A stretch of DNA of 11,431 nucleotides from Candidatus Eiseniibacteriota bacterium. Lineage in GTDB: Bacteria; Eisenbacteria; RBG-16-71-46; JABDJR01; JAWXBZ01. The stretch covers positions 1-11,431 of the forward strand of contig JAWXBZ010000049.1 in the NCBI GenBank assembly GCA_034440375.1, read 5' to 3'. This document shows positions 70-11,336 of the stretch, piece by piece. Numbering within the stretch: position 1 is the stretch's first letter; every line of letters starts with the position of its first letter. Position numbers and translations under genes: made by a program. The notes beneath the pieces are model-generated. The model was not told the DNA's origin. It saw only the letters and a list, made by a program, of their open reading frames with translations, and did not search any database.

Positions 70-612
70 ATGAATCGCTCGATATATAGTTTGTTAATTC
101 TGACGTCAATCGCTTGGTTGGCAGTTGGTACGGCGGATGGAAGATCCTACATGTTGGAGCCCACCCAGGTGATCGCCTGCTCCGGAGAGAAAGTGGGTCC
201 GGCTCGGCTCATCTTAACCTTTGACTTCACGACTTTTCCAAAGCGGTCCGGCTGGCAGGTTCAAGATGCCTTTCTGGAATGGCGAACAGCCGCCCGGCCA
301 TCTGCAGCCGCACCTCGATTCATTGCATACCCAATCATCGCTGATTGGATCGGCGTGGACGTGGCGCAGGGTAGGGCCCCACTCCTGGATCTGGCCCGGA
401 GTTCGGAATGGGAGATCGAACCGCTCGATGTGGAACGAATGGGTGGTGGCTTTGTCAGGCTCGACGTGTCCGCGATGGTCAAAAATTGGGTGCTTGGGTT
501 GACCCTGGACAAGGGAATCCTCGTGGAAGCTGATTCACTACCACTCTCAGTACTGATGACTGAGTCGGCTGGAATGAGGCTTCACGTCTTGTATGCGGGC
601 GACCCGCGGTAA
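70..612 (+). CDS. Secreted hypothetical protein, DNRLRE-domain-like (180 aa)
   Basis: SD GGAGGT at 58-63 before ATG 70. Signal-peptide-like N-terminus (MNRSIYSLLILTSIAWLAVGTADG). Segments RLILTFDFTTFP, QVQDAFLEW, YPIIADW, RLDVSAMVKNWVLG..DKGILV and RLHVLY follow the order of the DNRLRE/CBM96-like beta-sandwich pattern as I recall it. Confidence 0.65.
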   Translation: MNRSIYSLLILTSIAWLAVGTADGRSYMLEPTQVIACSGEKVGPARLILTFDFTTFPKRSGWQVQDAFLEWRTAARPSAAAPRFIAYPIIADWIGVDVAQGRAPLLDLARSSEWEIEPLDVERMGGGFVRLDVSAMVKNWVLGLTLDKGILVEADSLPLSVLMTESAGMRLHVLYAGDPR

Positions 613-618
613 CCTCGG

Positions 619-1410
619 ATGACACGAGTCTCGAGCAGTGCGAACCCGTGGTGTCGATTGGTGGCCCCGCGACATGGCCCCGGGCCGACAGCGATGAGTT
701 GCTTCTTCGTCATGCTCGTTGTTTCGTGGGCATGCCTGGCCACCCAATCGCTCGCCGCCCCTTTCGACAACCGACCCAAGCTCATGCTGCATCTGATTCC
801 GGTGACGACGAAGAACATCTGCGCACGAGGCTTGATCGATTGCCAGGCGGGTGCGACCGCGGGGAGCCTGGTAGATTCGGAGAGCGGGCCATTCTACATC
901 GTGTATCTCCTGGCAGAACTCGGGAGCATTGCCTCATCGACGGGATTCGCCTGTGGGCTCCACTATGGTAACGATTCCCCGAACGCTGATCGGGATGGAC
1001 GGGGCATTGAAGTATTCGATTGGCGGCTGTGCGGTAGTGGCTATGATTTACCATCGAATCCGCCGTGGCCGAAACCGACGGGAGTCTCCAGTCGGGTCTG
1101 GTACAGCGACATGGATGATTGCCTGAGTGATCGGGCCGCCGTGTCGGGGTACTTCTATCTTGGGGCGTACAGCCCGGACACACTGAGGCTTGGGCTCCGC
1201 CAGTTTGACAATCCACCGGTGATGATCAACTGCCAGACCGGCCTGGAACAAGGACTGTCTCCCGGAGATCTCGGTTCGGTGGTCTTCTCCGCCGGCGGGA
1301 CGATTTCCGGGTGCAATCCCTGCGTGGTGCCCTGCGGCGTGATTGCCACCACTTCGACCACGTGGAGCCGGATCAAGGGCACGTTGCTGCCGCAGACCGG
1401 GGACGAGTGA
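619..1410 (+). CDS. Secreted Cys-rich hypothetical protein with C-terminal TTWSRIK tail (true start may be ATG 694)
   Basis: 263-aa ORF beginning 6 nt after the previous stop. Hydrophobic signal-like stretch MSCFFVMLVVSWACLATQSLA. Nine Cys in the predicted mature part, including GCNPCVVPC. Ends ATTSTTWSRIKGTLLPQTGDE. Confidence 0.75.
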   Translation: MTRVSSSANPWCRLVAPRHGPGPTAMSCFFVMLVVSWACLATQSLAAPFDNRPKLMLHLIPVTTKNICARGLIDCQAGATAGSLVDSESGPFYIVYLLAELGSIASSTGFACGLHYGNDSPNADRDGRGIEVFDWRLCGSGYDLPSNPPWPKPTGVSSRVWYSDMDDCLSDRAAVSGYFYLGAYSPDTLRLGLRQFDNPPVMINCQTGLEQGLSPGDLGSVVFSAGGTISGCNPCVVPCGVIATTSTTWSRIKGTLLPQTGDE

Positions 1411-1460
1411 GGCGAGGGTCCATCGTTCCAGGCAGAACGATCCCGGATCCCCCACCTGCC

Positions 1461-1469
1461 TGATACACT
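1461..1469 (+). promoter_or_regulatory. Putative extended -10 promoter element (TGaTACACT)
   Basis: Matches TGnTAnnnT in the intergenic gap about 65 nt upstream of ATG 1533. No clear -35. Confidence 0.35.
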
Positions 1470-1532
1470 GCCCGGTCCATGGCAATGCCACCGGTTTCAG
1501 TTCTGAGTTTCCCCTTACCAAGGAGTGGATTC

Positions 1533-2222
1533 ATGAACAGCTTTGCTAAGACAGCGAGATCCTCTCTCCTGGCACTTTTGGCGTTGCTCGCGATGAGTGC
1601 GCCGTCCATTGCCAACGAAAACATTGTTCTATTCAGCGGCAACGGACCCGTCGGAAATCTTGATCCGATCATCCGGTACCTGGGCCTCGGGAGTTGTTGC
1701 GCGGAATTTCCTGCGTTTACGGCGGCGCACTTCGCCGCCGCCGCGGCTGGACCGCCGGCGACGATCATTGGGCAGGCTCACCCGGCATGGACTGCGGACC
1801 TGTCGTGCGATCCCACCGTCGAGACCGTGGGCCGCTGGGTTGGTGTCGCCATCGGCGGACCGCCGGAGACGGCGCTCTATGCGGTGAATTTCAACGTCAC
1901 GACCCAGTGCATCCACTCCGCGACACTCAGCATCTGCTGGATGGTGGACGATGCTCTTGGAAGCCCCAACAACCCGGCGGGTCTCTATCTCAATGGCAAT
2001 CCGATTCCGGCAGTTGCCGGCGGAAACTTCGCCGCGGCAACCTTTGTCGGCTCGATCCCCGTGGGTGGCATGCTGACTCCGGGCGCGAATACGCTGTACC
2101 TCTACGATGCCGACATCGGCGCCGCGGTCAGCGGCGTGGATTTCCTGGTACGCCTCGACGTCGTGGAGTGCGAAAGCCCGGTCGAAACGCACAGCTGGTC
2201 GGACATCAAGACCCGCTTCTAG
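1533..2222 (+). CDS. Secreted hypothetical protein, probable beta-sandwich/jelly-roll domain, with C-terminal HSWSDIK tail (229 aa)
   Basis: SD AAGGAG at 1520-1525 supports ATG 1533 over 1479. Classic Sec signal peptide MNSFAKTARSSLLALLALLAMSAPSIA. The pattern VDD...GLYLNG...LTPGANTLYLY resembles galactose-binding-like domains. Ends ECESPVETHSWSDIKTRF. Confidence 0.8.
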   Translation: MNSFAKTARSSLLALLALLAMSAPSIANENIVLFSGNGPVGNLDPIIRYLGLGSCCAEFPAFTAAHFAAAAAGPPATIIGQAHPAWTADLSCDPTVETVGRWVGVAIGGPPETALYAVNFNVTTQCIHSATLSICWMVDDALGSPNNPAGLYLNGNPIPAVAGGNFAAATFVGSIPVGGMLTPGANTLYLYDADIGAAVSGVDFLVRLDVVECESPVETHSWSDIKTRF

Positions 2223-2256: not shown

Positions 2257-2276
2257 AGTACCGGGCATGGCAATCC

Positions 2277-2324
2277 ATGGGAGGCTGAATCGCGGCCATG
2301 GGCGATTCAGCCTCCCATTATTTT
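2277..2324 (+). terminator. Probable intrinsic terminator
   Basis: Perfect 17-bp inverted repeat ATGGGAGGCTGAATCGC (2277-2293) / GCGATTCAGCCTCCCAT (2302-2318), 8-nt loop, followed by TATTTT. Confidence 0.7.
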
Positions 2325-2345
2325 ACGGCGAGGTGCCTCGAACCC

Positions 2346-2374
2346 TTGCGCTCCGCCCGTCTCCCGGCTTTAAT
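2346..2374 (+). promoter_or_regulatory. Putative sigma70-type promoter for a leaderless kinase transcript
   Basis: TTGCGC (2346-2351), 17-nt spacer, TTTAAT (2369-2374), then 6 nt to ATG 2381. No SD upstream of that ATG. Confidence 0.55.
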
Positions 2375-2380
2375 CTCGCG

Positions 2381-5062
2381 ATGCCGCTTAGTCCCGGAAC
2401 CCGCATCGGCCCCTACGAGGTCATCGCCCCGCTGGGCGCAGGCGGGATGGGGGAAGTGTTCCGGGCGCGGGATTCGCGGCTCGGGCGGGATGTGGCCATC
2501 AAGACGCTTCCCGATGCGTTTGCGGCCGAGCCGGAACGACTGGCACGATTCGAGCGGGAGGCCCGATTGCTGGCCTCCTTGAGCCATCCGAATATTGGCG
2601 GTATCCACGGCCTGGAGGATTCGGGGGGGCATCGCCATCTCGTCCTTGAGCTCGTGGAAGGGGAGACGCTGGGGAATCGCCTGGCGCGTGGTCCCCTGCC
2701 GCTGGACGAGTCGCTGGAATTTGGCCGGCAGATCGCCGCCGCGCTGGATGCGGCCCACGAAGCCGGCATCGTTCATCGCGATTTGAAGCCCGGCAACGTC
2801 ATGGTGACCCCGGCCGGCGATATCAAGGTCCTCGACTTCGGCCTGGCCCGCGGCGGTGGCGCCACGCCGGCATTGGACATGGGACTTTCCGCCTCGCCCA
2901 CGATGACCTACGCCGCCACGATGGCCGGGGTGATCCTCGGTACGGCGGCCTACATGAGTCCGGAGCAGGCCCGCGGCCGCACGGTCGATCGCCGCAGCGA
3001 CATCTGGTCTTTCGGCTGCGTGCTGTTCGAATGCCTGACCGGCAAGATCCTCTTTTCGGGCGAGACCATTTCGGACACGATCGCGAAGATCCTGGAGCGC
3101 GAGCCGGACTGGAGCTTGCTGCCGCAGAAGACGCCACCGCGCGTGCGCGAGCTGCTCCGCCGCTGCCTTGAAAAAGATGCGCGCAAACGCCAGCGGGATG
3201 CCGGGGATATCAAGCTCGAGATTGACGAGATCCTGGCCGGCGGCGTGAACGCGAGTGGCACGATCCCGGCGTTGACTGCCGCCGCTGCCCCGGCGTCGTC
3301 GCAGAGGGGCTCGCTTCTGGCCTGGGGCATTGCCGGGCTCTCGCTGCTGGTGGCAGCCGCCTCATGGATTGCCCCCCGCCTGGCATCGCCACCTGCGCCT
3401 CCACCACCCGTTCAGTCGCTGATTGCACCGGCCCGGGGCACCTCCAGCGATAACATTCTCCCAGCCGACGCCGCCTACTCCCCGGACGGCACGATGATCG
3501 TGTTCGCGGCGGTGGACTCGGCGGGTCGCAGCCAGCTCTGGCTCCGGTCGCTTGGATCGCTGGATGTCCGATTGATCACGCATACCGAACTCGTCGATGG
3601 CGGCCTGCCGTTCTGGTCGCCGGACTCGCGCCGGATCGGTTTTTTCTCCGACCGCAAGCTCAGAATCATCGGGCTGGATGGCGGATCGTCTCAGATCATT
3701 TGTGATGCCCCGAGTGGCCGCGGCGGCACCTGGAATGGGGACGGTGTCATCCTCTTCGCTCCGACGAGTAGTGGTCCCCTCCAGCGGGTTTCCGTCTCGG
3801 GAGGGAAGCCGGAGGCGGTCCTGCCGCTGGACGAAAAGGCCGGTGAGACGGCGCAGCGTTTTCCCCGGTTCCTGCCGGATGGAAAGCAATTCACGTTCGC
3901 TTCGCTGCCGGCCCGGAATGAGGAGATTACGACCTTTATCGGGCGATTGGGCGCAACCGAGCGCCGCGTTTTCGTCCGCGCGTCATCGAGCGCCGCATTC
4001 GTGCCGCCCAACCTTGCCGTCTTCACCCGGGGACAAACGCTGATGGCGCAGCGGTGTGACCCATCCTCCTTGACCCTCAAGGGGGAGCCGGTGGCCATCG
4101 GCGATGCGCCCTCGAACCTGTGGACCTGGGGAACGAATCCGGCCAGCTGTTCCGATCGTGGGGACATCGTCTTTCCGACAAGCGTTTCCGATTTGACCTA
4201 CCTGGAATGGATGTCACCGTCCGGCCAGTCGCTGTCGCGGCCCCGCATTCCAGAGGCGCAATGGGCTCAAATCTCCCTGAGCCCGGACGGGCGGCAGGCA
4301 GCCATTCTCCGGTCGTCGGATTCGCGCGAGACCAATATCTGGCTGGTCGATCCGATCCGGGGGACGGCTGCCCCCATCACGACCGAAGGGGGGCCGGTCG
4401 ATAAGCTGATCTGGTCGCCGGATGGCCGCGAGATTTTCTACACCGCCGATCGGACCGGACGCCAGAACCTCTATGCCCGTCGGACGACTGGTTCGTACGA
4501 GGAGCGGCTGGTTTTTCAGAACGACAATATGTTTAAGCTGGCACAGGATATCTCGCCGGATGGGCGCTTTTTCCTGTTTGCCCAGCTCGATCCGGTCACC
4601 CGGCGGGACCTCTGGGTCGTGCCGTCCGCTGGAGGCAACGCGACGCCGTTTCTCACGGCGCCGGCCGAACAGAATGCCGCCATCTTCTCCCCGGATGGAC
4701 ACTGGGTGGCCTACCAATCGGACGAATCGGGTCGACTTGAGATCTACGTTACGTCATTTCCCATTCCGGAAACTAAGATCCAGGTATCAACCGCTGGAGG
4801 GGGAGGCTTTTTCTGGTTGCGCCAGTCGTGGGAGATCAGGTACTTAAGTCCCGCGGGCCGGTTGATGAGCTGCGCGGTCAGGCCTGGTCCGACACTTCAG
4901 ATTTTGGAGCCCAGGGAAGTTGGCGACTTCTCGAGGAACGTGCGCGACCTCGACATCACCGCCGACGGTCAGCGCATCCTGGCCATCCGCGGCGAAACCG
5001 CCGCCGGCGGTTCGAGTTTGACGCTGCTGACCAACTGGCATTCGTTGTTGGATAAGCACTGA
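2381..5062 (+). CDS. Hanks-type Ser/Thr protein kinase with a transmembrane helix and C-terminal TolB/PD40-like beta-propeller (893 aa)
   Basis: Kinase motifs GAGGMGEV, VAIK, HRDLKPGN, DFG, YMSPE and DIWSFG. Hydrophobic segment LLAWGIAGLSLLVAAASWI. Repeated [YWLIF]SPD[GS] blades. Start placed at MPLSPGTRIGPYE because the upstream in-frame extension runs through the terminator hairpin. Confidence 0.93.
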   Translation: MPLSPGTRIGPYEVIAPLGAGGMGEVFRARDSRLGRDVAIKTLPDAFAAEPERLARFEREARLLASLSHPNIGGIHGLEDSGGHRHLVLELVEGETLGNRLARGPLPLDESLEFGRQIAAALDAAHEAGIVHRDLKPGNVMVTPAGDIKVLDFGLARGGGATPALDMGLSASPTMTYAATMAGVILGTAAYMSPEQARGRTVDRRSDIWSFGCVLFECLTGKILFSGETISDTIAKILEREPDWSLLPQKTPPRVRELLRRCLEKDARKRQRDAGDIKLEIDEILAGGVNASGTIPALTAAAAPASSQRGSLLAWGIAGLSLLVAAASWIAPRLASPPAPPPPVQSLIAPARGTSSDNILPADAAYSPDGTMIVFAAVDSAGRSQLWLRSLGSLDVRLITHTELVDGGLPFWSPDSRRIGFFSDRKLRIIGLDGGSSQIICDAPSGRGGTWNGDGVILFAPTSSGPLQRVSVSGGKPEAVLPLDEKAGETAQRFPRFLPDGKQFTFASLPARNEEITTFIGRLGATERRVFVRASSSAAFVPPNLAVFTRGQTLMAQRCDPSSLTLKGEPVAIGDAPSNLWTWGTNPASCSDRGDIVFPTSVSDLTYLEWMSPSGQSLSRPRIPEAQWAQISLSPDGRQAAILRSSDSRETNIWLVDPIRGTAAPITTEGGPVDKLIWSPDGREIFYTADRTGRQNLYARRTTGSYEERLVFQNDNMFKLAQDISPDGRFFLFAQLDPVTRRDLWVVPSAGGNATPFLTAPAEQNAAIFSPDGHWVAYQSDESGRLEIYVTSFPIPETKIQVSTAGGGGFFWLRQSWEIRYLSPAGRLMSCAVRPGPTLQILEPREVGDFSRNVRDLDITADGQRILAIRGETAAGGSSLTLLTNWHSLLDKH

Positions 5063-5268: not shown

Positions 5269-6252
5269 CTACTTCCCGTGCGGCACCAGGTTCGGCAGGG
5301 GCGCCCGATCCCGAACATAGGTATCGAACCAATAATTAACCTGGCGGGCCACCTCCGCGCGGTGCTCCGAAAGACCGTGGTCGCCCCCTTCGAGGAAGAC
5401 AAATCGAACGGGGCGTTTGGCCTTGTACAACGCCTCGGCCATTCGCAAGGTCTCGGTCGGTTCGACGCGCCAGTCGGCGCTGCCCTGCAGGAGCAGTATC
5501 GGCGTGGTCGGATTCAGGCGTTCCGGCCAGCGAACAGCGGAGCGCGCTTCCAGGGCGGCTTCGCGAATCGCGGGCCAGCCGGGCACCAGCTCAGCCAGCA
5601 CGCCTGTTTCCATTTCCGGCCGTTGCCTCACCATATCCGCGGCATCCGACAGACCGGCCCCGACGACGGCCGCGCGGATTCGATCGGTGCGGGCCAGCGC
5701 CAGGTAGGTCATCATCCCGCCCCGACTCCAGCCGTACATCCCGAGTCGGGTCGCATCGACGCGGGGCTGTCGTTCCAGCAGGGGAACCAGGTTCAGGACA
5801 TCGTTCACATCCGCCCCGCCGAACTCCTCGCGTCCCTCGCCGCCGGCATTGCCGCGATATTGGCTGGCCACGACGACATAGCCATGCTGGGCCAGCGGGC
5901 CGAGGAGCAGGGCGGCCGACGTATCGGTGATCGCTCCAAATTCCCGGTTGCCGCCACGATTGAAAATAATGGCCGGCAATGAATCACCGCTGATTGGTTC
6001 GACGAGATAGCCCCGCACCTTGAGCCCATCGCTCATGTAGGTGATGCGCTGGACGAGGACGCTGTCGAGATCAAGGACACGACCGCTGCGCTGGATTCGC
6101 TCGTCAATGAGCCGCCTCAGGTTGCCCGTGTACGAGACGGGTGCCCGAGCGACCAAGGTGCCGTCGGGTTCGATCGCGCCGACGGTCGTGGCCAGTATCA
6201 GCGGGAGCACGAAAAATCCACTTACCGGCCAACCCGAGCGATGACCAGTCAT
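5269..6252 (-). CDS. S9 family (prolyl oligopeptidase-like) alpha/beta-hydrolase peptidase, probably exported (327 aa; alternative starts 6276 or 6288)
   Basis: Nucleophile motif GWSRGG, Asp in QGSADWRV, His in GGDHGL, plus YMSDGLKVRGYL and NRGGN. Hydrophobic N-terminal stretch FFVLPLILATTVGA. AAAGGGG lies upstream of ATG 6252. ATG 6288 would overlap the upstream TGA by 1 nt. Confidence 0.88.
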   Translation of the reverse strand: MTGHRSGWPVSGFFVLPLILATTVGAIEPDGTLVARAPVSYTGNLRRLIDERIQRSGRVLDLDSVLVQRITYMSDGLKVRGYLVEPISGDSLPAIIFNRGGNREFGAITDTSAALLLGPLAQHGYVVVASQYRGNAGGEGREEFGGADVNDVLNLVPLLERQPRVDATRLGMYGWSRGGMMTYLALARTDRIRAAVVGAGLSDAADMVRQRPEMETGVLAELVPGWPAIREAALEARSAVRWPERLNPTTPILLLQGSADWRVEPTETLRMAEALYKAKRPVRFVFLEGGDHGLSEHRAEVARQVNYWFDTYVRDRAPLPNLVPHGK

Positions 6253-6287
6253 CCGCGCCCCTTTCGCGCCGTACATCCCGGGAGCCA

Positions 6288-7301
6288 TCAACCCCGCCGA
6301 AACAGCACCCAGAGAAAAAACGGTCCACCGATGGCCGCGGTGATGATCCCCACCGGCAGTTCCAGCGGGTTGGCGATCGTGCGCGCCAGCGTGTCGCACA
6401 CGATCAGGAACGATGCGCCGCCCAGCGCCACGGCGGGGAGCAGCACGCGGTGATCGGGTCCGACGAATCGCCGGAGCAGGTGCGGAACGACCAGGCCGAC
6501 GAAACCGATCGGGCCGGCCCAGGCCACGACCAGCGCCACCATGATCGAAGCCGCCGATAACCCGATCAGTCGCACCCGGTCGGCGTTGAGGCCAAGGTGG
6601 GTGGCCGTCCGATCCCCGATCGACATGACATTGAGCCCCTGCGCGTTGGCCATCAGGATGACGAACGCCGCCAGCAGCGGAAGGGTGAGCGCCGCGGGGA
6701 GCGCCACGCTAGATACGTCCAGTCCTCCCAACATCCAGCGGAGCATGGCGAAGGCCTGGTGGGGGTCCGACAGGTATTGAACGATCAGGATTCCCGATGC
6801 GAAAAGGAGATTGAGCGTGACGCCGGCCAGCAGCAGTGTATGTGTTCGGTCAGACACCGTGGGCCGGCGGGCCAGCAGGGTGACCAGCAGCATGGCCAAA
6901 GCCGCACCGACCAGCGCCGACAGCGGAACCAGCGCCACGCCGAGCGTCGCCAGGCCGACGGGCATCCAGCGCATGGCCAGCAGCGCGCCGAACGAGGCGC
7001 CGCCCGAGATTCCCAGCGTGTACGGCGTGGCCATGTCGTTGCGCAGCAGCGCCTGGTACACGGCGCCGGCCACGGCCAGTGCGGCGCCGACCAACGCGGC
7101 AAACAGCACCCGGGGAAGCCGCGTGTTGAAGAAGATGACGGCATCAATATTTCGCTCGATCGGAATCGATCGATCGAACGCTTTGACGAGCGATATGGAA
7201 GTCGGACCGATCAACGGCGCCAGTGCCATCGCAAATAGCATCACGATGAGGAGAAGCATAATGACCCGACCGGGATGGGCCGCGCGATTGCCGGCGGTCA
7301 T
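6288..7301 (-). CDS. FecCD/BtuC-family ABC transporter permease (337 aa)
   Basis: Family motifs RLPRVLFAALVGAALAVAGAVYQALLRN, PYTLGISGGA, GPIGFVGLVVPH and ELPVGIITAAIGGPFF; many hydrophobic helices. ATGA overlap with the upstream ATPase gene. Confidence 0.93.
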   Translation of the reverse strand: MTAGNRAAHPGRVIMLLLIVMLFAMALAPLIGPTSISLVKAFDRSIPIERNIDAVIFFNTRLPRVLFAALVGAALAVAGAVYQALLRNDMATPYTLGISGGASFGALLAMRWMPVGLATLGVALVPLSALVGAALAMLLVTLLARRPTVSDRTHTLLLAGVTLNLLFASGILIVQYLSDPHQAFAMLRWMLGGLDVSSVALPAALTLPLLAAFVILMANAQGLNVMSIGDRTATHLGLNADRVRLIGLSAASIMVALVVAWAGPIGFVGLVVPHLLRRFVGPDHRVLLPAVALGGASFLIVCDTLARTIANPLELPVGIITAAIGGPFFLWVLFRRG

Positions 7302-8095
7302 CGCGTCAATCCCACGATCGGCGCCCCGGCCGGTGAAGTAGCGCCCCAGAGCGAGGCGCCGTAAACCGATTCCAAACGATCCGGCTTCAGGATGTCCTCG
7401 GGGGATCCGGTGGACTCGATGCGACCGTGGTGCAGGATGGCCAGGGTCCGACAGTAGAGCCCGGCCAGGTTCAAGTCGTGGGTCACGACCACTGTTGTCA
7501 GGTTGTGCTCGACATTGAGGCGCGTCAGCAACCGAAATATCGACTGTTGATGAGCCAGGTCGAGCGAGGCGGTCGGTTCATCCAGCAACAGGATGCGCGG
7601 CTCCTGGGCCAACGCGCGGGCCACCAGGACCATCTGCCGTTCGCCACCGGAGAGCTGGCCGAGCGGGCGACAGGAGAGGTCGGCAATGCCGACGGCATCG
7701 AGGGCGCGGCGGGCGGCCGCATGGTCGACCGGTGTCTCGGTGGCCAGGAGCCCGGTGAGCCATGGGGTCCGACCCATCAGGACAATCTCGCTGACCCGGT
7801 ATGGAAACGCGTGCGGTTCGGCCTGCGGAACAACGGCAACCTGGCGGGCGATATCGCGGCGCTTCCATTCGGTGAGCGGTCGGCCATTCAACTCGATGAG
7901 TCCGCGCGCGGGTTGGAGCGCGCCGGATAACAGGTGCAGCAACGTACTTTTTCCCGCGCCGTTGGGTCCGACGATGCCGAGGAAGGCACCGGCGGGGATA
8001 TCGAGGGTGGCGCCGGCCAGGACGGAGACGCCATCGTGGTAGGAAAACGATAGATCGGTGGCCTTGAGGCTTCCTTGTACCGTGGATTCGATCAT
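7298..8095 (-). CDS. ABC transporter ATP-binding subunit, BtuD/FepC/HmuV type (265 aa)
   Basis: Walker A GPNGAGKS, Q-loop VVPQ, signature LSGGE, Walker B LLLDEPT, H-loop VTHDLNLA. ATGA overlaps at both ends. Confidence 0.95.
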   Translation of the reverse strand: MIESTVQGSLKATDLSFSYHDGVSVLAGATLDIPAGAFLGIVGPNGAGKSTLLHLLSGALQPARGLIELNGRPLTEWKRRDIARQVAVVPQAEPHAFPYRVSEIVLMGRTPWLTGLLATETPVDHAAARRALDAVGIADLSCRPLGQLSGGERQMVLVARALAQEPRILLLDEPTASLDLAHQQSIFRLLTRLNVEHNLTTVVVTHDLNLAGLYCRTLAILHHGRIESTGSPEDILKPDRLESVYGASLWGATSPAGAPIVGLTR

Positions 8096-9102
8096 TGGCT
8101 TTGGCCGCTCGGCGCGCTGACGCGCACCTCGGGAACTTCGCGCACCTCGGAATCTTTGCGCGCCTCGGGAACTTTGCGCGCCTCGGAAACGACTCGGGCC
8201 AGCTTTCGCCCGGTGTTGACCAGGTCGACGCCATTGATTGTCATGTGGTCGTCATCCATGACGACGACACGACCGTTCCGGACCGCGGGGAGCGTGGGTA
8301 GCTCGTCCCAGAGCCGAATCATGGCCTGCTTCTGTTCCGCCGAGGCCACGCCACCCAGGTGCCGTTCCAGGATCAGCTCCGGGTTCATCGTCAGGATCGC
8401 CTCGCGGGTGATGATCGGGTAACGGCCGGCATCTTTCGGCACGACATTCGTGCCACCGACCCGCACCAGCAGTTCATCGAGATAGGTTGGGCTGCCGACC
8501 GCGTAGATCTGCTCGAGGGCGCCCTCGGCGTGGCCCAGGATCATCAGTGTTCTGACCGGCGGGGGATTGTCACCCGCGGCCGCCAGCGAATCGAGCCCGC
8601 TGTTCATCTCGCGAACCAGGGCTTCCGCACGCTCCGCCGCTCCAACGGCTGCACCCAGTTGACGCAGCGTGGCCTGGATATCGGCAATCGTCTCACAGGC
8701 GTTTGTTTCTAAAATTCGCGGCTCGGCGCGACCGGAAAAAAACTCCAGCACCTTCGTGTTGCCGGGGACCGCCACGATCAGGTCGGGGCGGGCGGCCACC
8801 ATCGCTTCGAGATTTGGCTGATAGAGATCGCCCAGGGGCGGGCGGGTGGCGGCTTCCGGCGGATAACGGCACCAGCGAGTGACACCGATGACCCTGTCTC
8901 CCGCGCCCAGGGCGAACAGCATTTCGGTCAGGTTGGGCGAACAGGAGATGATCCGCGCGGGGGCGGTGGAGGTCTCGTGCGTGGCCGTGCGGCCCGAGCA
9001 ACCGGCGAAGGCCAGCAGAAGCACGAGAAGTGGCGCCGGCAACACGCCGAACAGCCGCGCCGGCCACCGGAGGAACGGTGGCCATGTTCGAAGGAAGATC
9101 AT
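8092..9102 (-). CDS. BtuF-like (helical-backbone) substrate-binding lipoprotein (336 aa)
   Basis: Lipobox-like LAFAGC. RIISCSPNLTEMLFALGAGDRVIGVTRWCRYP, PNLEAMVAARPDLI and PAVRNGRV are typical of cobalamin/iron-chelate binding proteins. ATG 9102 overlaps the tkt stop (TGATG); the track start at 9105 is a TTG. Confidence 0.88.
   Translation of the reverse strand: MIFLRTWPPFLRWPARLFGVLPAPLLVLLLAFAGCSGRTATHETSTAPARIISCSPNLTEMLFALGAGDRVIGVTRWCRYPPEAATRPPLGDLYQPNLEAMVAARPDLIVAVPGNTKVLEFFSGRAEPRILETNACETIADIQATLRQLGAAVGAAERAEALVREMNSGLDSLAAAGDNPPPVRTLMILGHAEGALEQIYAVGSPTYLDELLVRVGGTNVVPKDAGRYPIITREAILTMNPELILERHLGGVASAEQKQAMIRLWDELPTLPAVRNGRVVVMDDDHMTINGVDLVNTGRKLARVVSEARKVPEARKDSEVREVPEVRVSAPSGQSQ
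8119..8190 (-). repeat. Four imperfect tandem copies of an 18-nt unit encoding VSEARK-VPEARK-DSEVRE-VPEVRV
   Basis: Minus strand reads GTTTCCGAGGCGCGCAAA GTTCCCGAGGCGCGCAAA GATTCCGAGGTGCGCGAA GTTCCCGAGGTGCGCGTC. Confidence 0.9.
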
Positions 9103-11132
9103 CAACCCTCAAGCATCTCGCGGGCCACTTCGACGACATGGGCCACGGTGAAGCCGAAATGCTCCGCCAAATCATTGTCGGGCGCCGAAGCGCCGAACCG
9201 GTCCAGTCCGATGACCCGCCCGGCCGGTCCGATCCACTTGTCCCAGCCGAAGCTGCAACCCGCCTCAACGGCCAGCCGGCGTGTGACACCCGGTGGCAGG
9301 ACCGAATCGCGATAAGACGCATCTTCTGCCTCGAACATCTCCCACGACGGAAGACTGACGACGCGGACCGACCGCCCCTCGGCTTCCAGCAATCGGTGCG
9401 CCTCCACGGCCAGGGTCACCTCGGAGCCGGTGGCGATCAAGATCAATTCGATCGCGTCCGGGCGCAGCTCGCAGGCCAGGATATAGCCACCCCGGCGGAG
9501 TCCCGTTGCCGGCCCGTAAACGGCACGATCCTGGGTCGGCAGGTTCTGGCGCGTCAACACGAGGCCAACCGGGCCGTGCGATTCGAGCGCGGCAATCCAG
9601 GCCTGCACGGTCTCGTTGGCATCGGCAGGACGGATCAACGTGAACTTAGGGATGGTCCGCAGGGCCATCAGTTGCTCCACCGGCTGGTGGGTCGGACCGT
9701 CCTCGCCGAGATAGAACGAATCGTGCGTCCAGACATAGATGACCGGCTGTTTCATGAGCGCGGCCAGCCGCACCGCGGGTCGCATGTAGTCGCTGAAGAT
9801 GAGGAACGTGCCGCCGTACGGGCGAAAGCCGCCGTGAAGGCTCATGCCGTTCAGGATGGAACCCATGGCGTGCTCGCGCACCCCGAAGTGAAAATTGCGC
9901 CCGCCGAACAATCCCGGGGCGATCGGATCGGCCTTGTCGATCCATGTCTTGTTCGATGGGGCCAGGTCCGCCGAGCCGCCGACGAACTGGGGGAGCGCGG
10001 CGGCCAGCCACTGGATCATTTTGCTGGAGGCCGCGCGGGTCGCCATCCCCTTGGCGTCCGTCGGAAACTCCGGCGCCCCGGCCGACCACCCCGCCGGCAG
10101 TTCCGCGGCATGCGAGGAATCCCAGAGTCGGGCTCCGGCGGCGTCGGCCTTCCGCCAGGCATCGAAGAGCCGCTGCCACTCGGCATGAGCCACCCGGCCA
10201 CGATCCGAGACCGTTTGCCAGAAGGCGCGCACTTCGTCCGGAACCAGGAACTGCGAATCCTCCGGCCACCCGTAGGCCTTCTTGGTGGCCCGAACCTCGT
10301 CGGCTCCAAGCGGCGCCCCGTGCGCCTCTTCGCTGTCCTGCTTGTGCGGCGCCCCGTAGCCGATGTGCGTGCGGGCCACGATGAGGCTGGGGCTGTCGGC
10401 CCTGGCCCGGGCCGCGATGAGCGCCGCGTCCACGGCCGGGCGGTCGTGGCCATCGACATGATTGACATGCCAGCCGTAGGCCTGGAAGCGGGCACCGACG
10501 TCCTCACTCCAGGCGAGCGAGGTCTTGCCGTCGATGGTGATGCGGTTGTCGTCGTACAGCACGATCAGCCGGTTGAGCTTCAGGTGACCGGCCAGCGAAG
10601 CCGCTTCGGAAGCCACGCCTTCCATCAGGTCGCCATCCGATGCCAGGACGTAGGTCCAATGCTCGATGACACAATGTTCCGGGCCATTGATACGGGCTGC
10701 GAGCATCGCCTCGGCGATGGCCATGCCGACGCCGTTGCCGAACCCTTGGCCCAGCGGCCCCGTCGTCGTTTCGACGCCGGGCGTGTGGCCGTGCTCCGGG
10801 TGCCCCGGCGTCCGGCTTCCCCACTGGCGGAATTGCTTCAGGTCATCGATCGACAGGTCGTAGCCGGCCAGGTGGAGGAGGCCGTACTGGAGCAGGCAGC
10901 CGTGGCCGGCCGACAGGACAAAGCGGTCGCGATTCGGCCAGTGCGGGTCGTCGGGATTGAACCTGAGATGGCGCGTCCAGAGAACATGAGCCATGTCGGC
11001 AGCCCCCATGGGGAGGCCCGGATGACCCGAGTTGGCCTTTTCGACCGCATCCATGGCCAGTGTGCGCAGCGTGGTGACCGCCAGATCCTCGGGGCCGGCG
11101 TTGCCTGCCTCGAACCGTTTGTCCTGTGACAT
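9102..11132 (-). CDS. tkt: Transketolase (676 aa)
   Basis: [37 protein letters not shown], ThDP-binding DGDLMEG...[16 protein letters not shown] and [18 protein letters not shown] ends 6 nt before ATG 11132. Confidence 0.97.
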
Positions 11133-11246
11133 CAAGCGCTCCTGATTTTGCGTCCGCGTGTGGCTGGAGATACGGGAATCCGGCGAGACTATCCGTTCAC
11201 CCATCCGCCCGCCACCGGGGGGCCGGCATGATTGCTTACTTTTCAA

Positions 11247-11262
11247 TGTAAAGTACTTTACA
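11247..11262. promoter_or_regulatory. Perfect 16-bp palindrome TGTAAAGTACTTTACA, candidate transcription-factor operator
   Basis: Exactly self-complementary and set in an AT-rich patch between the divergent tkt and TatD-like genes. Confidence 0.7.
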
Positions 11263-11336
11263 ATCACTCAGGGACCCGGAACGGCCGGATCAACATCAGC
11301 TGGAGGACCCCATGGATCGCACACCGTTCCTCTCCC

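Follow-up and report, generated by a model that had tools for sequence, protein, structure and literature searches.

Introduction

The type A C-terminal domain (CTD) of type IX secretion systems (T9SS; TIGR04183 / PF18962, Por_Secre_tail) folds as a domain, measures roughly 70-100 residues and tags Sec-exported proteins of the FCB group. In dockerin-cohesin systems of the cellulosome type, varied proteins are plugged onto one receptor by a C-terminal module, the dockerin, a domain of about 70 residues that binds Ca. MinD and PBP5 have C-terminal membrane-targeting helices. The tripartite signals (LPXTG/sortase, PEP-CTERM/exosortase, GlyGly-CTERM/rhombosortase and MYXO-CTERM/myxosortase) are short, strictly C-terminal and found in lineage-specific variants, and they mark many unrelated exported proteins per genome (Haft preprint, 10.1101/2023.06.07.544157).

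Two genes in the window (the whole stretch of 11,431 nucleotides analysed here) encode predicted exported proteins that end in a tail with a Trp-Lys core. The tail comprises about 18-25 residues, made of a spacer and a short predicted helix, and a full-text search of the literature found no description of it. It is borne by around 67 genes, about one gene in fifty (~2% of genes), of the uncultured soil-type bacterium to which the window belongs. We consider it an even bet that this C-terminal peptide serves as a portable address or for docking, and is distinct from the fold of the passenger.

Results

Two window proteins end in a common tail

The features of the two genes are as follows:

694 to 1410, forward strand: ORF1, a predicted exported protein of 238 amino acids, with an alternative upstream start at 619

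694 to 756, forward strand: putative signal-peptide-like N-terminus of ORF1, from hydrophobic-window heuristics and alignment with paralogues, the cleavage site being placed without a dedicated predictor

1333 to 1407, forward strand: tail module of ORF1, with Cys, spacer G-V-I-A-T-T-S, core T-W-S-R-I-K (1360-1377) and a 10-residue extension

1533 to 2222, forward strand: ORF2, a predicted exported protein of 229 amino acids whose beta-sandwich passenger weakly resembles CBM35/CBM6 modules

1533 to 1613, forward strand: putative signal-peptide-like N-terminus of ORF2, with an AF2 helix at residues 5-20

2169 to 2219, forward strand: tail module of ORF2, with Cys, spacer E-S-P-V-E-T-H, core S-W-S-D-I-K (2193-2210), T-R-F and the stop

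ORF1 ends in C-G-V-I-A-T-T-S-T-T-W-S-R-I-K-G-T-L-L-P-Q-T-G-D-E-stop and ORF2 in V-E-C-E-S-P-V-E-T-H-S-W-S-D-I-K-T-R-F-stop. A sequence-only reading of the window had proposed that two otherwise dissimilar proteins, both with N-terminal signal peptides, share such a tail. Hydrophobic-window heuristics agree on the N-termini, and the best BLASTP alignment between ORF1 and ORF2 (E = 9.3) is the tail itself. The motif given for ORF1 was also right, but the tail does not stop at GTL: the seven residues LPQTGDE follow, so that ten residues lie after the Lys.

Judged by profile scores, ORF1 is a weak, atypical member of the tail set. Its tail scored 21.0 bits in one search and 22.2 bits (E 7.6e-4) in another, the respective values for ORF2 being 23.7 bits and 29.7 bits (E 3.1e-6), and its G-V-I-A-T-T-S stands where P-V-x-P is usual. 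Among relatives the tail is kept in 8/8 cases for ORF1, with up to 21 residues after the Lys, and in 12/13 members of the ORF2 family; identity among these relatives goes as low as 40%. ORF1 is one of a set of paralogues, and their shared domain is also found as the N-terminal part of long proteins with a T9SS CTD. It matched no Pfam or NCBIfam family, and cohesin-like structural neighbours of its family in the Atlas (TM ~0.45-0.49) are a lead only. ORF2 has one paralogue, on contig C20.

In the AF2 model of ORF2 (pLDDT 83), the domain stops at residue 212, and a coil (213-221) and a low-confidence helix (222-228) lie outside it. The ORF1 model is poor overall (pLDDT 55) and makes the same helix call, with low pLDDT, at residues 223-231. 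The models thus suggest that the tail is not part of any passenger fold.

The gene located 3' of the two window tail genes encodes a Ser/Thr kinase with a PD40 propeller.

The motif is strictly C-terminal and conserved as protein

A scan for [TS]W[GS]x[ILVM]K covered 36,511 six-frame ORFs of the Candidatus Eiseniibacteriota genome GCA_034440375.1. Among 71 matches, 65 lay no more than 15 residues from the stop, and the density of C-terminal matches (65 per 574,688 positions) was 85-fold that of internal ones (6 per 4,513,174). A profile built from 54 tails retrieved 71 places at the genome cut-off of E < 0.001, both window tails included. In a further tail-profile search, about 67 C-terminal matches stood clear of noise, and there was a single strong internal match. 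In the regions fetched from genomes G140 and G154, all 47 motifs were terminal. The tail on the two window proteins is therefore real, as the sequence-only reading had it, and the proteome scan proposed there finds it far beyond those two proteins.

Identity at codon positions 1, 2 and 3 of the tails is 0.53, 0.65 and 0.46, respectively, and hence the tail is conserved at the protein level. A DNA-level repeat was ruled out, as conservation is lowest at the third position of codons and pairwise nucleotide identity reaches 0.82 at most over 45 nt. Two window proteins alone would prove nothing, one of them a match as weak as that of ORF1 (E 7.6e-4). The C-terminal excess leaves virtually no probability for chance, nor do the counts leave any more for a repeat or for the last element of a common fold: tails occur in at least 43 families with unrelated Pfam domains, and lie outside the modelled domain.

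From its start to its end, the tail consists of an optional Cys (41/67 tails), an extended and conserved P-V-x-P spacer, the core [ST]-T-W-[SG]-x-[IV]-K and a stretch of 3-13 residues. Trp and Lys are essentially fixed, and neither Phe, Tyr nor Leu replaces Trp among the profile matches. In 65 tails of this genome the residues after the Lys are mostly polar and the last one varies; from Trp to the end the net charge is about +2. The claim that the tail lacks a transmembrane helix and a basic cluster is thus upheld, as no Arg cluster is present.

A reader may not be needed at all if the tail is a short interfacial helix which, on its Pro-rich tether, attaches its protein to LPS or a membrane leaflet. 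We regard this as improbable. The helix modelled from Trp onward in both window proteins would fit, and Trp, Lys and the net charge suit an interface. Contrary to the amphipathic tag that had been envisaged, however, the best helical hydrophobic moment over nine residues does not exceed that of ordinary C-termini (0.46, sd 0.13, n = 67 for tails; 0.48, sd 0.18, n = 2810 for the others), and mean hydrophobicity from Trp onward is around 0. Two further points against it are that Phe, Tyr and Leu fail to substitute for Trp and that the spacer is conserved too.

The tail is carried by small exported proteins of many kinds

A signal-peptide-like start was found in 57/67 tail genes, compared with 818/2874 other genes and 93/131 CTD genes, which served as a positive control; the calls come from a crude heuristic that flags 28% of other genes too. 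The 61 tail genes compared by BLAST fall into 43 families. Pfam matched 16/54 tail proteins, and the domains are unrelated: LTD, NHL, beta-helix, CHRD, DUF4394, PrcB_C and ASH/DUF1573. Matches in NCBIfam were to choice-of-anchor D and to NHL proteins similar to ScyF, which is a PEP-CTERM protein. The tail is independent of the passenger, and the view that it tags signal-peptide proteins with unrelated passengers is borne out.

Within this genome, the domain of ORF1 and five further tail passengers also occur as the N-terminal part of long CTD-ended proteins. The two kinds of protein differ in size, with a median of 234 aa among those with tails and of 704 aa among 134 with a CTD.

Tails accompany the T9SS in FCB-group genomes

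The tail was detected in 140/151 genomes of the phylum. A pattern scan located it also in metagenome-assembled genomes (MAGs) named Latescibacteria, Krumholzibacteria, Fibrobacteraceae, Ignavibacteria-like, Gemmatimonadota and others. Among 49 informatively named loci, 48 belong to FCB-group taxa and one is labelled Alphaproteobacteria. The list of taxa given in the sequence-only reading is borne out for Eisenbacteria, Latescibacteria and Krumholzibacteria; Poribacteria are absent among the 80 loci read.

Markers of the T9SS are found in the same genomes. In the genome of the window, SprA is encoded by an ORF of 2321 aa, and the CTD has 118 matches; CTD cargo is present in 151/151 genomes of the phylum, and SprA in 24/25 tail-bearing genomes reached by the pattern scan. 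G161, the genome without a SprA match, is perhaps just incomplete, being a bin of 1.6 Mb.

These observations raise the possibility that the tail is a minimal signal for T9SS secretion or surface attachment, read by one of the parts of that system (the attachment complex, the translocon or a shuttle of PorV/PorP type, for example), and that small proteins cross the outer membrane, or are placed on it, through the T9SS. In its favour are the joint occurrence of tails with CTD cargo and SprA, the prevalence of FCB-group taxa and the use of tail or CTD by identical passengers. Furthermore, the genome of the window has at least five PorV-like genes, one of which stands in line, on contig C30, with a tail gene and a CTD gene that point the same way; the only PorP/SprF match coincides with a PorV-like gene. 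The co-occurrence is, however, confounded with lineage, and the tail does not resemble the CTD: its profile has no matches within CTDs or ahead of them (one chance-like match among 134 CTD proteins of this genome, so that a tail in front of the CTD was discarded). The number of PorV-like genes (2-6 per genome) does not track the number of tails either. On balance, we find the T9SS explanation unlikely, and family f5 adds to this judgement, as it keeps abundant CTD cargo and almost no tails.

Genomes of family f5 have 0-4 tails each, and usually a single conserved LTD protein carries the tail. This protein has housekeeping synteny, beside a putative carbamate kinase (assigned by motif only) and an aminotransferase-like gene. 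CTD cargo in f5 amounts to 20-35 or more matches per genome, the exception with 9 being one small, 81%-complete genome. Because the conserved LTD protein keeps its tail, f5 is not a clean tail-free contrast group. A comparable case is a small protein of Ignavibacteria-like MAGs, in which the tag is also on a single protein. No Pfam or NCBIfam family matched this protein, and its only conserved neighbour is a putative maf (motif only). Persistence on one protein, as in f5, implies that the tag can be maintained alone, and fits a tag without a dedicated high-capacity machine; both cases may thus be counted in favour of a tail that binds the envelope by itself.

Tails have shifted from Gly to Ser in concert

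The residue that follows Trp (position +1) distinguishes lineages. Ser occupies this position in 51/65 tails of the genome of the window and in 8/10 tails of the sister genome G006, whereas Gly is found in 8/10 tails of the sister family f2 and in 39/39 tails from four further genomes, which include a Latescibacteria MAG. In short, the family of this bacterium (f1) reads TWS and the others read TWG. Among the +1 Ser codons listed, 40/49 are AGY, one step from GGY, compared with 30% genome-wide. As TWS is lineage-wide and its codons are one step away from those of Gly, dozens of unrelated genes seem to have changed in parallel.

Tails that shift together within a lineage point to one shared reader. 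We note that related genomes are not independent, and that part of the concerted shift could reflect descent or gene conversion. A parallel change of this kind is hard to square with lipid binding.

The reader could also be a protease. A periplasmic or surface enzyme might recognise the tail as a removable pro-peptide or as a turnover tag, so that the tail would control the maturation or lifetime of the protein and not its location. A strictly C-terminal position and a fixed Trp/Lys core followed by a stretch of variable length (3-13 residues, and the longer ones of ORF1 relatives) suit a recognition site that lies internally, with a disposable end after it, and the shared reader that the concerted shift implies might be such an enzyme. 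Relatives with the same passengers, however, bear anchoring or sorting signals at that position, not pro-peptides, and no peptidase gene recurs near tail genes. We hold proteolysis to be about as improbable as direct attachment to lipid.

Search for a reader gene

The sequence-only reading had envisaged a dedicated machine, and had suggested a co-occurring peptidase or translocon. None was identified; neighbouring genes, PorV-like copy number, kinases and the ORF1 domain all failed, a result that favours a tail acting without a reader. The candidates were the following:

(i). Neighbouring genes. No non-tail gene family recurs near tail genes in the genome of the window, and none recurs beside them across G000, G140 and G154. 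The statement on peptidase genes has the same scope.

(ii). Ser/Thr kinases. In the genome of the window, 9/39 kinases lie within three genes of a tail gene (p = 0.002), the share among other genes being 7.6%; near kinases there is an enrichment of CTD genes too (12/39 vs 16%). The link was not repeated elsewhere: 1/30 kinases of G154 (null 2.2) and 0/24 of G140 (null 1.4) lie within 5 kb of a tail.

(iii). PorV-like proteins. Their copy number is 2-6 per genome everywhere, including 3-6 in f5, and is unrelated to tail count.

(iv). The ORF1 domain as a general receptor. It was rejected because it is present in only 25/151 genomes, and in 0/60 of family f3, compared with 140/151 for tails.

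Discussion

A portable address would work as follows. The tail would be placed on Sec-exported, mostly small, single-domain proteins, as an alternative to the ~80-residue T9SS CTD of larger proteins in the same genome. The optional Cys probably staples the end of the passenger, and a short Pro/Val-rich spacer, P-V-x-P, would precede a two-turn element starting at [ST]-T-W-[SG]-x-[IV]-K. One conserved envelope protein (the 'reader') would bind the tail peptide, and would either hold the protein at an outer-envelope site or pass it on to that site. From the evidence above we infer both the existence of a protein reader and an outcome of localisation rather than, for instance, turnover.

A broader formulation is that the FCB group has a proteome-wide system of peptide-receptor addressing, in which the tail, a two-turn Trp/Lys helix held out on a Pro-rich stalk, plugs small exported proteins onto one conserved envelope receptor, with tag and receptor co-evolving. 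Such co-evolution is suggested by the change from Gly to Ser that dozens of tails in one family made in parallel, and the receptor would probably sit at the outer membrane, perhaps allied to the type IX apparatus. A fourth bacterial design of C-terminal sorting signal would then stand beside the beta-signal, the domain of the T9SS and the tripartite signals of sortase type, and would supply a ready-made minimal display tag. We consider this generalisation doubtful.

Should the tail prove to be an address label, it would mark some 2% of this bacterium's genes for an undescribed destination, and likewise many proteins in Eisenbacteria, Latescibacteria, Krumholzibacteria, Fibrobacteraceae, Ignavibacteria-like groups and Gemmatimonadota. 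Better annotation would then be within reach for exported proteins now called 'hypothetical', which number in the hundreds, and a missing envelope component would be pointed out. Co-variation with the lineage-wide Gly-to-Ser switch offers a concrete way of tracing the reader. The tail would also provide a very short natural tag for surface display.

Comparison with known sorting signals

The tail had been said to fit none of PEP-CTERM, GlyGly-CTERM, LPXTG and the T9SS CTD, and profile comparison with Pfam and NCBIfam gave no model match that would contradict this. In NCBIfam, 0/54 tails matched at E <= 10 and no sorting-signal model was found on the 54 whole proteins; TIGR04183 matched neither these nor the window proteins. 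With Pfam, the tails gave two single spurious matches only, and PF18962 and PF13860 are absent from the 54 tail proteins. A PEP-CTERM search of the genome had no matches, but the control was also without matches anywhere. The outer-membrane beta-signal, a C-terminal aromatic residue that closes a beta-barrel, does not correspond to the tail, whose last residues vary and whose passengers are soluble (LTD, NHL, beta-helix, beta-sandwich).

MinD/PBP5-type helices are likewise short and C-terminal, with aromatic and basic residues and a flexible linker. The moment of the tail is not above background, and its Trp/Lys core, spacer and Gly-to-Ser shift exceed what lipid binding needs. A dockerin-like module would offer the same plug-in principle; the ORF1 family, which provides the cohesin-like lead, is nevertheless found in far fewer genomes than tails.

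The tripartite signals are similar to the tail in size, in strict position, in lineage-specific variation and in the variety of exported proteins marked, and LTD, CHRD, NHL and choice-of-anchor D passengers carry signals of this type elsewhere. The tail differs in that neither a transmembrane segment nor an Arg cluster follows the motif, and in that Cys is not general.

The T9SS CTD is a whole folded domain, while the tail is a short peptide without similarity to it; the tail marks small proteins and is nearly lost in f5, which retains CTD cargo. Both are nevertheless C-terminal tags of Sec-exported FCB-group proteins, and they share genomes, passenger domains and an identical slot at the end of the protein.

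The shared tail in the window and in its genome

The tail shared by ORF1 and ORF2 is a real, widespread and undescribed C-terminal tag. The genome that carries these genes comprises 3.96 Mb in 264 contigs, with 63.8% G+C and a completeness of 93.7%, and the window is its contig C49. The Atlas taxa of the ORF1 clusters point to Eisenbacteria as the source of this genome. The relevant features of the window are the following:

694-1410 (alternative start 619), forward strand: ORF1, tail C-G-V-I-A-T-T-S-T-T-W-S-R-I-K, then ten residues
1533-2222, forward strand: ORF2, tail C-E-S-P-V-E-T-H-S-W-S-D-I-K-T-R-F
2267-5062, forward strand: Ser/Thr protein kinase with C-terminal PD40/TolB-like propeller repeats, directly 3' of both tail genes
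70-612, forward strand: third signal-peptide protein, 180 aa, weak DNRLRE-domain match (E 0.012), without tail
5269-11267, reverse strand: S9-family peptidase-like hydrolase, FecCD/ABC/periplasmic-binding-protein transporter set and transketolase, an ordinary context

Another DNRLRE protein of the same genome, L039, does have the tail.

The sequence-only reading had proposed that ORF1 and ORF2 are unrelated outside the tail, and this holds: their top BLASTP alignment (E = 9.3) is the tail itself. At E <= 0.01 neither Pfam nor NCBIfam assigns either protein to a family; two Pfam matches of ORF2 fall short of this threshold (E 0.087 and 0.28).

When the motif [TS]W[GS]x[ILVM]K was counted in the 36,511 six-frame ORFs of at least 60 aa, 71 occurrences were found, 65 of them within 15 residues of the stop. 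The suspected enrichment at C-termini is thus genome-wide: 65 occurrences in 574,688 terminal positions versus 6 in 4,513,174 internal ones represent an 85-fold difference in density. A crude set of 3239 genes contains 61 tail genes, or 67 if TWT variants are admitted. A tail profile separates tails sharply from noise, and in six frames 71 places score E < 0.001, with both window tails among them (that of ORF1 weakly, E 7.6e-4). Only one strong match is internal, 43 residues before the ORF end.

A full motif lies 43 residues upstream of the ORF end in gene g1727 (contig C129, 11983-12027), where a frameshift, a lost stop or a natural extension may be involved. Protein L018 (contig C24, 19647-20906) is internally duplicated; both copies close with a tail-like motif, so that one motif is internal and the other terminal.

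Cargo carrying the tail

Signal-peptide-like starts were scored with a heuristic whose positive control was the set of genes with a C-terminal domain (CTD) of type IX secretion (T9SS), 93/131 of which were flagged. The heuristic is lenient, as it also flags 818/2874 other genes; even so, the expected enrichment among tail genes is evident (57/67).

The 61 tail genes fall into 43 BLAST families by single linkage. Among 54 tail proteins searched against Pfam, 16 have a match at E <= 0.001 and 38 do not. The domains found are mutually unrelated (LTD, NHL, beta-helix, CHRD, DUF4394, PPC, Golvesin_C, PrcB_C and ASH/DUF1573), and NCBIfam adds choice-of-anchor D, DNRLRE and NHL proteins akin to the PEP-CTERM protein ScyF. 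As anticipated, no characterised sorting-signal model of NCBIfam or Pfam matched: none was hit in the NCBIfam search of the 54 whole proteins, the tails alone matched NCBIfam in 0/54 cases, and against Pfam they gave two single matches, both spurious. No description of the tail was found in a search of published full text; the preprint by Haft about small sorting domains (10.1101/2023.06.07.544157) covers tripartite signals only.

Anatomy of the tail

The consensus is P-V-P-V-E-P-T-T-W-S-R-I-K-S-L-[LFI], with a total of 3-13 residues following the Lys. In 41/67 tails, versus 164/2723 control C-termini, a Cys precedes the Trp by 7-14 residues; since 24/67 tails lack one in the vicinity, it must be considered optional. 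At codon positions 1, 2 and 3 the identity is 0.53, 0.65 and 0.46, and nucleotide identity between any two tails reaches at most 82% over 45 nt. Conservation is at the protein level.

The fold predicted for ORF2, modelled together with 13 relatives (pLDDT 83), is a beta-sandwich at residues 28-212 with weak likeness to CBM35/CBM6 modules (Foldseek E about 1e-3). The tail lies outside this domain, as a coil (213-221) and a short low-confidence helix (222-228). The ORF1 model is poor (pLDDT 55), with a helix again from the Trp onward; neighbours in the Atlas suggest, as a lead only, a cohesin-like sandwich. The tail had been described as amphipathic, which is not borne out since its helical hydrophobic moment (0.46) is no different from the value for other C-termini (0.48).

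A lineage shift at the residue after the Trp

The residue that follows the Trp (+1) differs between lineages.

Residue +1 of the tail in different genomes
Own genome, 65 tails: Ser 51, Gly 14
G006, same family (f1), 10 tails: Ser 8, Gly 2
Sister family f2, 10 tails: Ser 2, Gly 8
G154 (a Latescibacteria MAG), G144, G140 and G096, 39 tails from 40 loci: Ser 0, Gly 39

The Gly counts are not a search artefact, because the search profile is itself Ser-biased. The eight relatives of ORF1 and the closer relatives of ORF2 are of the Ser type, and the distant relatives of ORF2 are of the Gly type. The +1 Ser codon is AGY, one transition from GGY, in 40/49 listed cases versus 30% genome-wide (p about 1e-13). 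Both the +1 pattern and the AGY codons indicate that dozens of unrelated genes underwent the same replacement in one lineage. In our reading, this parallel Gly-to-Ser replacement adapted the tails to a single partner that had itself changed, which speaks for a common reader; descent or gene conversion may account for part of the shift.

Distribution

Of 151 genomes sampled from the phylum, 140 have matches to the tail profile, and the highest count in one genome is at least 57 (the phylum tallies of tail, CTD, PorV-like and ORF1-family matches include the unpublished genome G015, on which alone no claim depends). The 32 genomes of family f5 have 0-4 matches each. CTD cargo is found in 151/151 genomes, f5 included. 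Five f5 genomes retain the tail on just one protein, a conserved LTD protein encoded in a housekeeping syntenic context. This protein (L076-L081; f5 genomes and contig C194 of the own genome) has aminotransferase-like and carbamate-kinase-like neighbours, named by eye.

A scan of species-representative genomes for DNA encoding exactly T-W-G-x-[IV]-K-x-x-[YF]-R-stop detected at least 125 such stretches. DNA was available for 80 loci, and there 84/84 matches terminate ORFs at true stop codons. Record names, informative for 49/80 loci, include Eisenbacteria (19), Fibrobacteraceae (5), Krumholzibacteria, Kapaibacterium and Melioribacter(aceae) (4 each), Latescibacteria (3), Ignavibacteria, Gemmatimonadota and Bacteroidota (2 each), and KSB1, Zixibacteria, Chlorobiaceae and Alphaproteobacteria (1 each). 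Such tails thus recur in genomes named Eisenbacteria, Latescibacteria and Krumholzibacteria, as the sequence-only reading had stated for 'TWGxIK' tails, while Poribacteria are absent among the names of the 80 loci.

In four loci (L207-L210) from MAGs labelled Ignavibacteria, Melioribacter, Kapaibacterium and 'Chlorobiaceae' (G152, G158, G153, G156), the tail terminates a conserved exported protein of ~130-175 aa. This protein shows one Ig/FN3-like domain by eye, matched no Pfam or NCBIfam family, and in 3/4 loci adjoins a putative maf, read by motif only.

Type IX secretion and the search for a reader

SprA is present in 24/25 tail-bearing genomes from the pattern scan. The exception, G161, is a 1.6-Mb bin labelled 'uncultured Alphaproteobacteria' in which an Ignavibacteria-type tail protein (L090) was found and SprA was not; it is probably mislabelled or incomplete. 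We infer that the tail most probably serves as a docking or address peptide, whose reader would be an envelope protein conserved among T9SS-bearing bacteria.

No recurrent gene family was detected beside tail genes in the own genome, nor when it was compared with G140 and G154. Kinases of the own genome are enriched near both tail genes (9/39) and CTD genes (12/39), but the adjacency to tail genes did not recur in G154 and G140, and the link was rejected. PorV-like copy number, flat across the phylum, does not track the tail, and the ORF1 domain family, present in only 25/151 genomes, was discarded as a general reader.

The own genome has a SprA ORF and 118 CTD matches; a CTD profile of our own detects 134 CTD proteins, whose median length is 704 aa versus 234 aa for tail proteins. 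The tail occurs upstream of a CTD in one chance-like case among the 134. The ORF1 domain either occurs in short proteins with the tail or forms the N-terminus of long ones with a CTD; in the own genome, five further passengers of the tail are likewise found at the N-terminus of long CTD-ended proteins. Tail and CTD are thus alternative endings of the same passenger domains. The ORF1 family (own-genome contigs C11, C50, C101, C209, C252 and others; L013, L014, L028, L029, L037, L053, L062-L064) is strongly expanded: the own genome, G006 and two of seven f2 genomes have at least 19 matches each, and the remaining five f2 genomes have 7-18.

At least five PorV-like outer-membrane genes are found in the own genome:

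C196, 30087-31088
C75, 18047-18988
C150, 2254-3147
C30, 30159-31154
C63, 5603-6655

Four of these five adjoin CTD cargo genes, the neighbour on C75 not being scored as a CTD protein. On C30 the gene row consists of a large protein, the PorV-like protein, a CTD protein and a tail protein. The adjacency of PorV-like and CTD cargo genes resembles the cargo-plus-shuttle pairs of type B CTDs in Flavobacterium.
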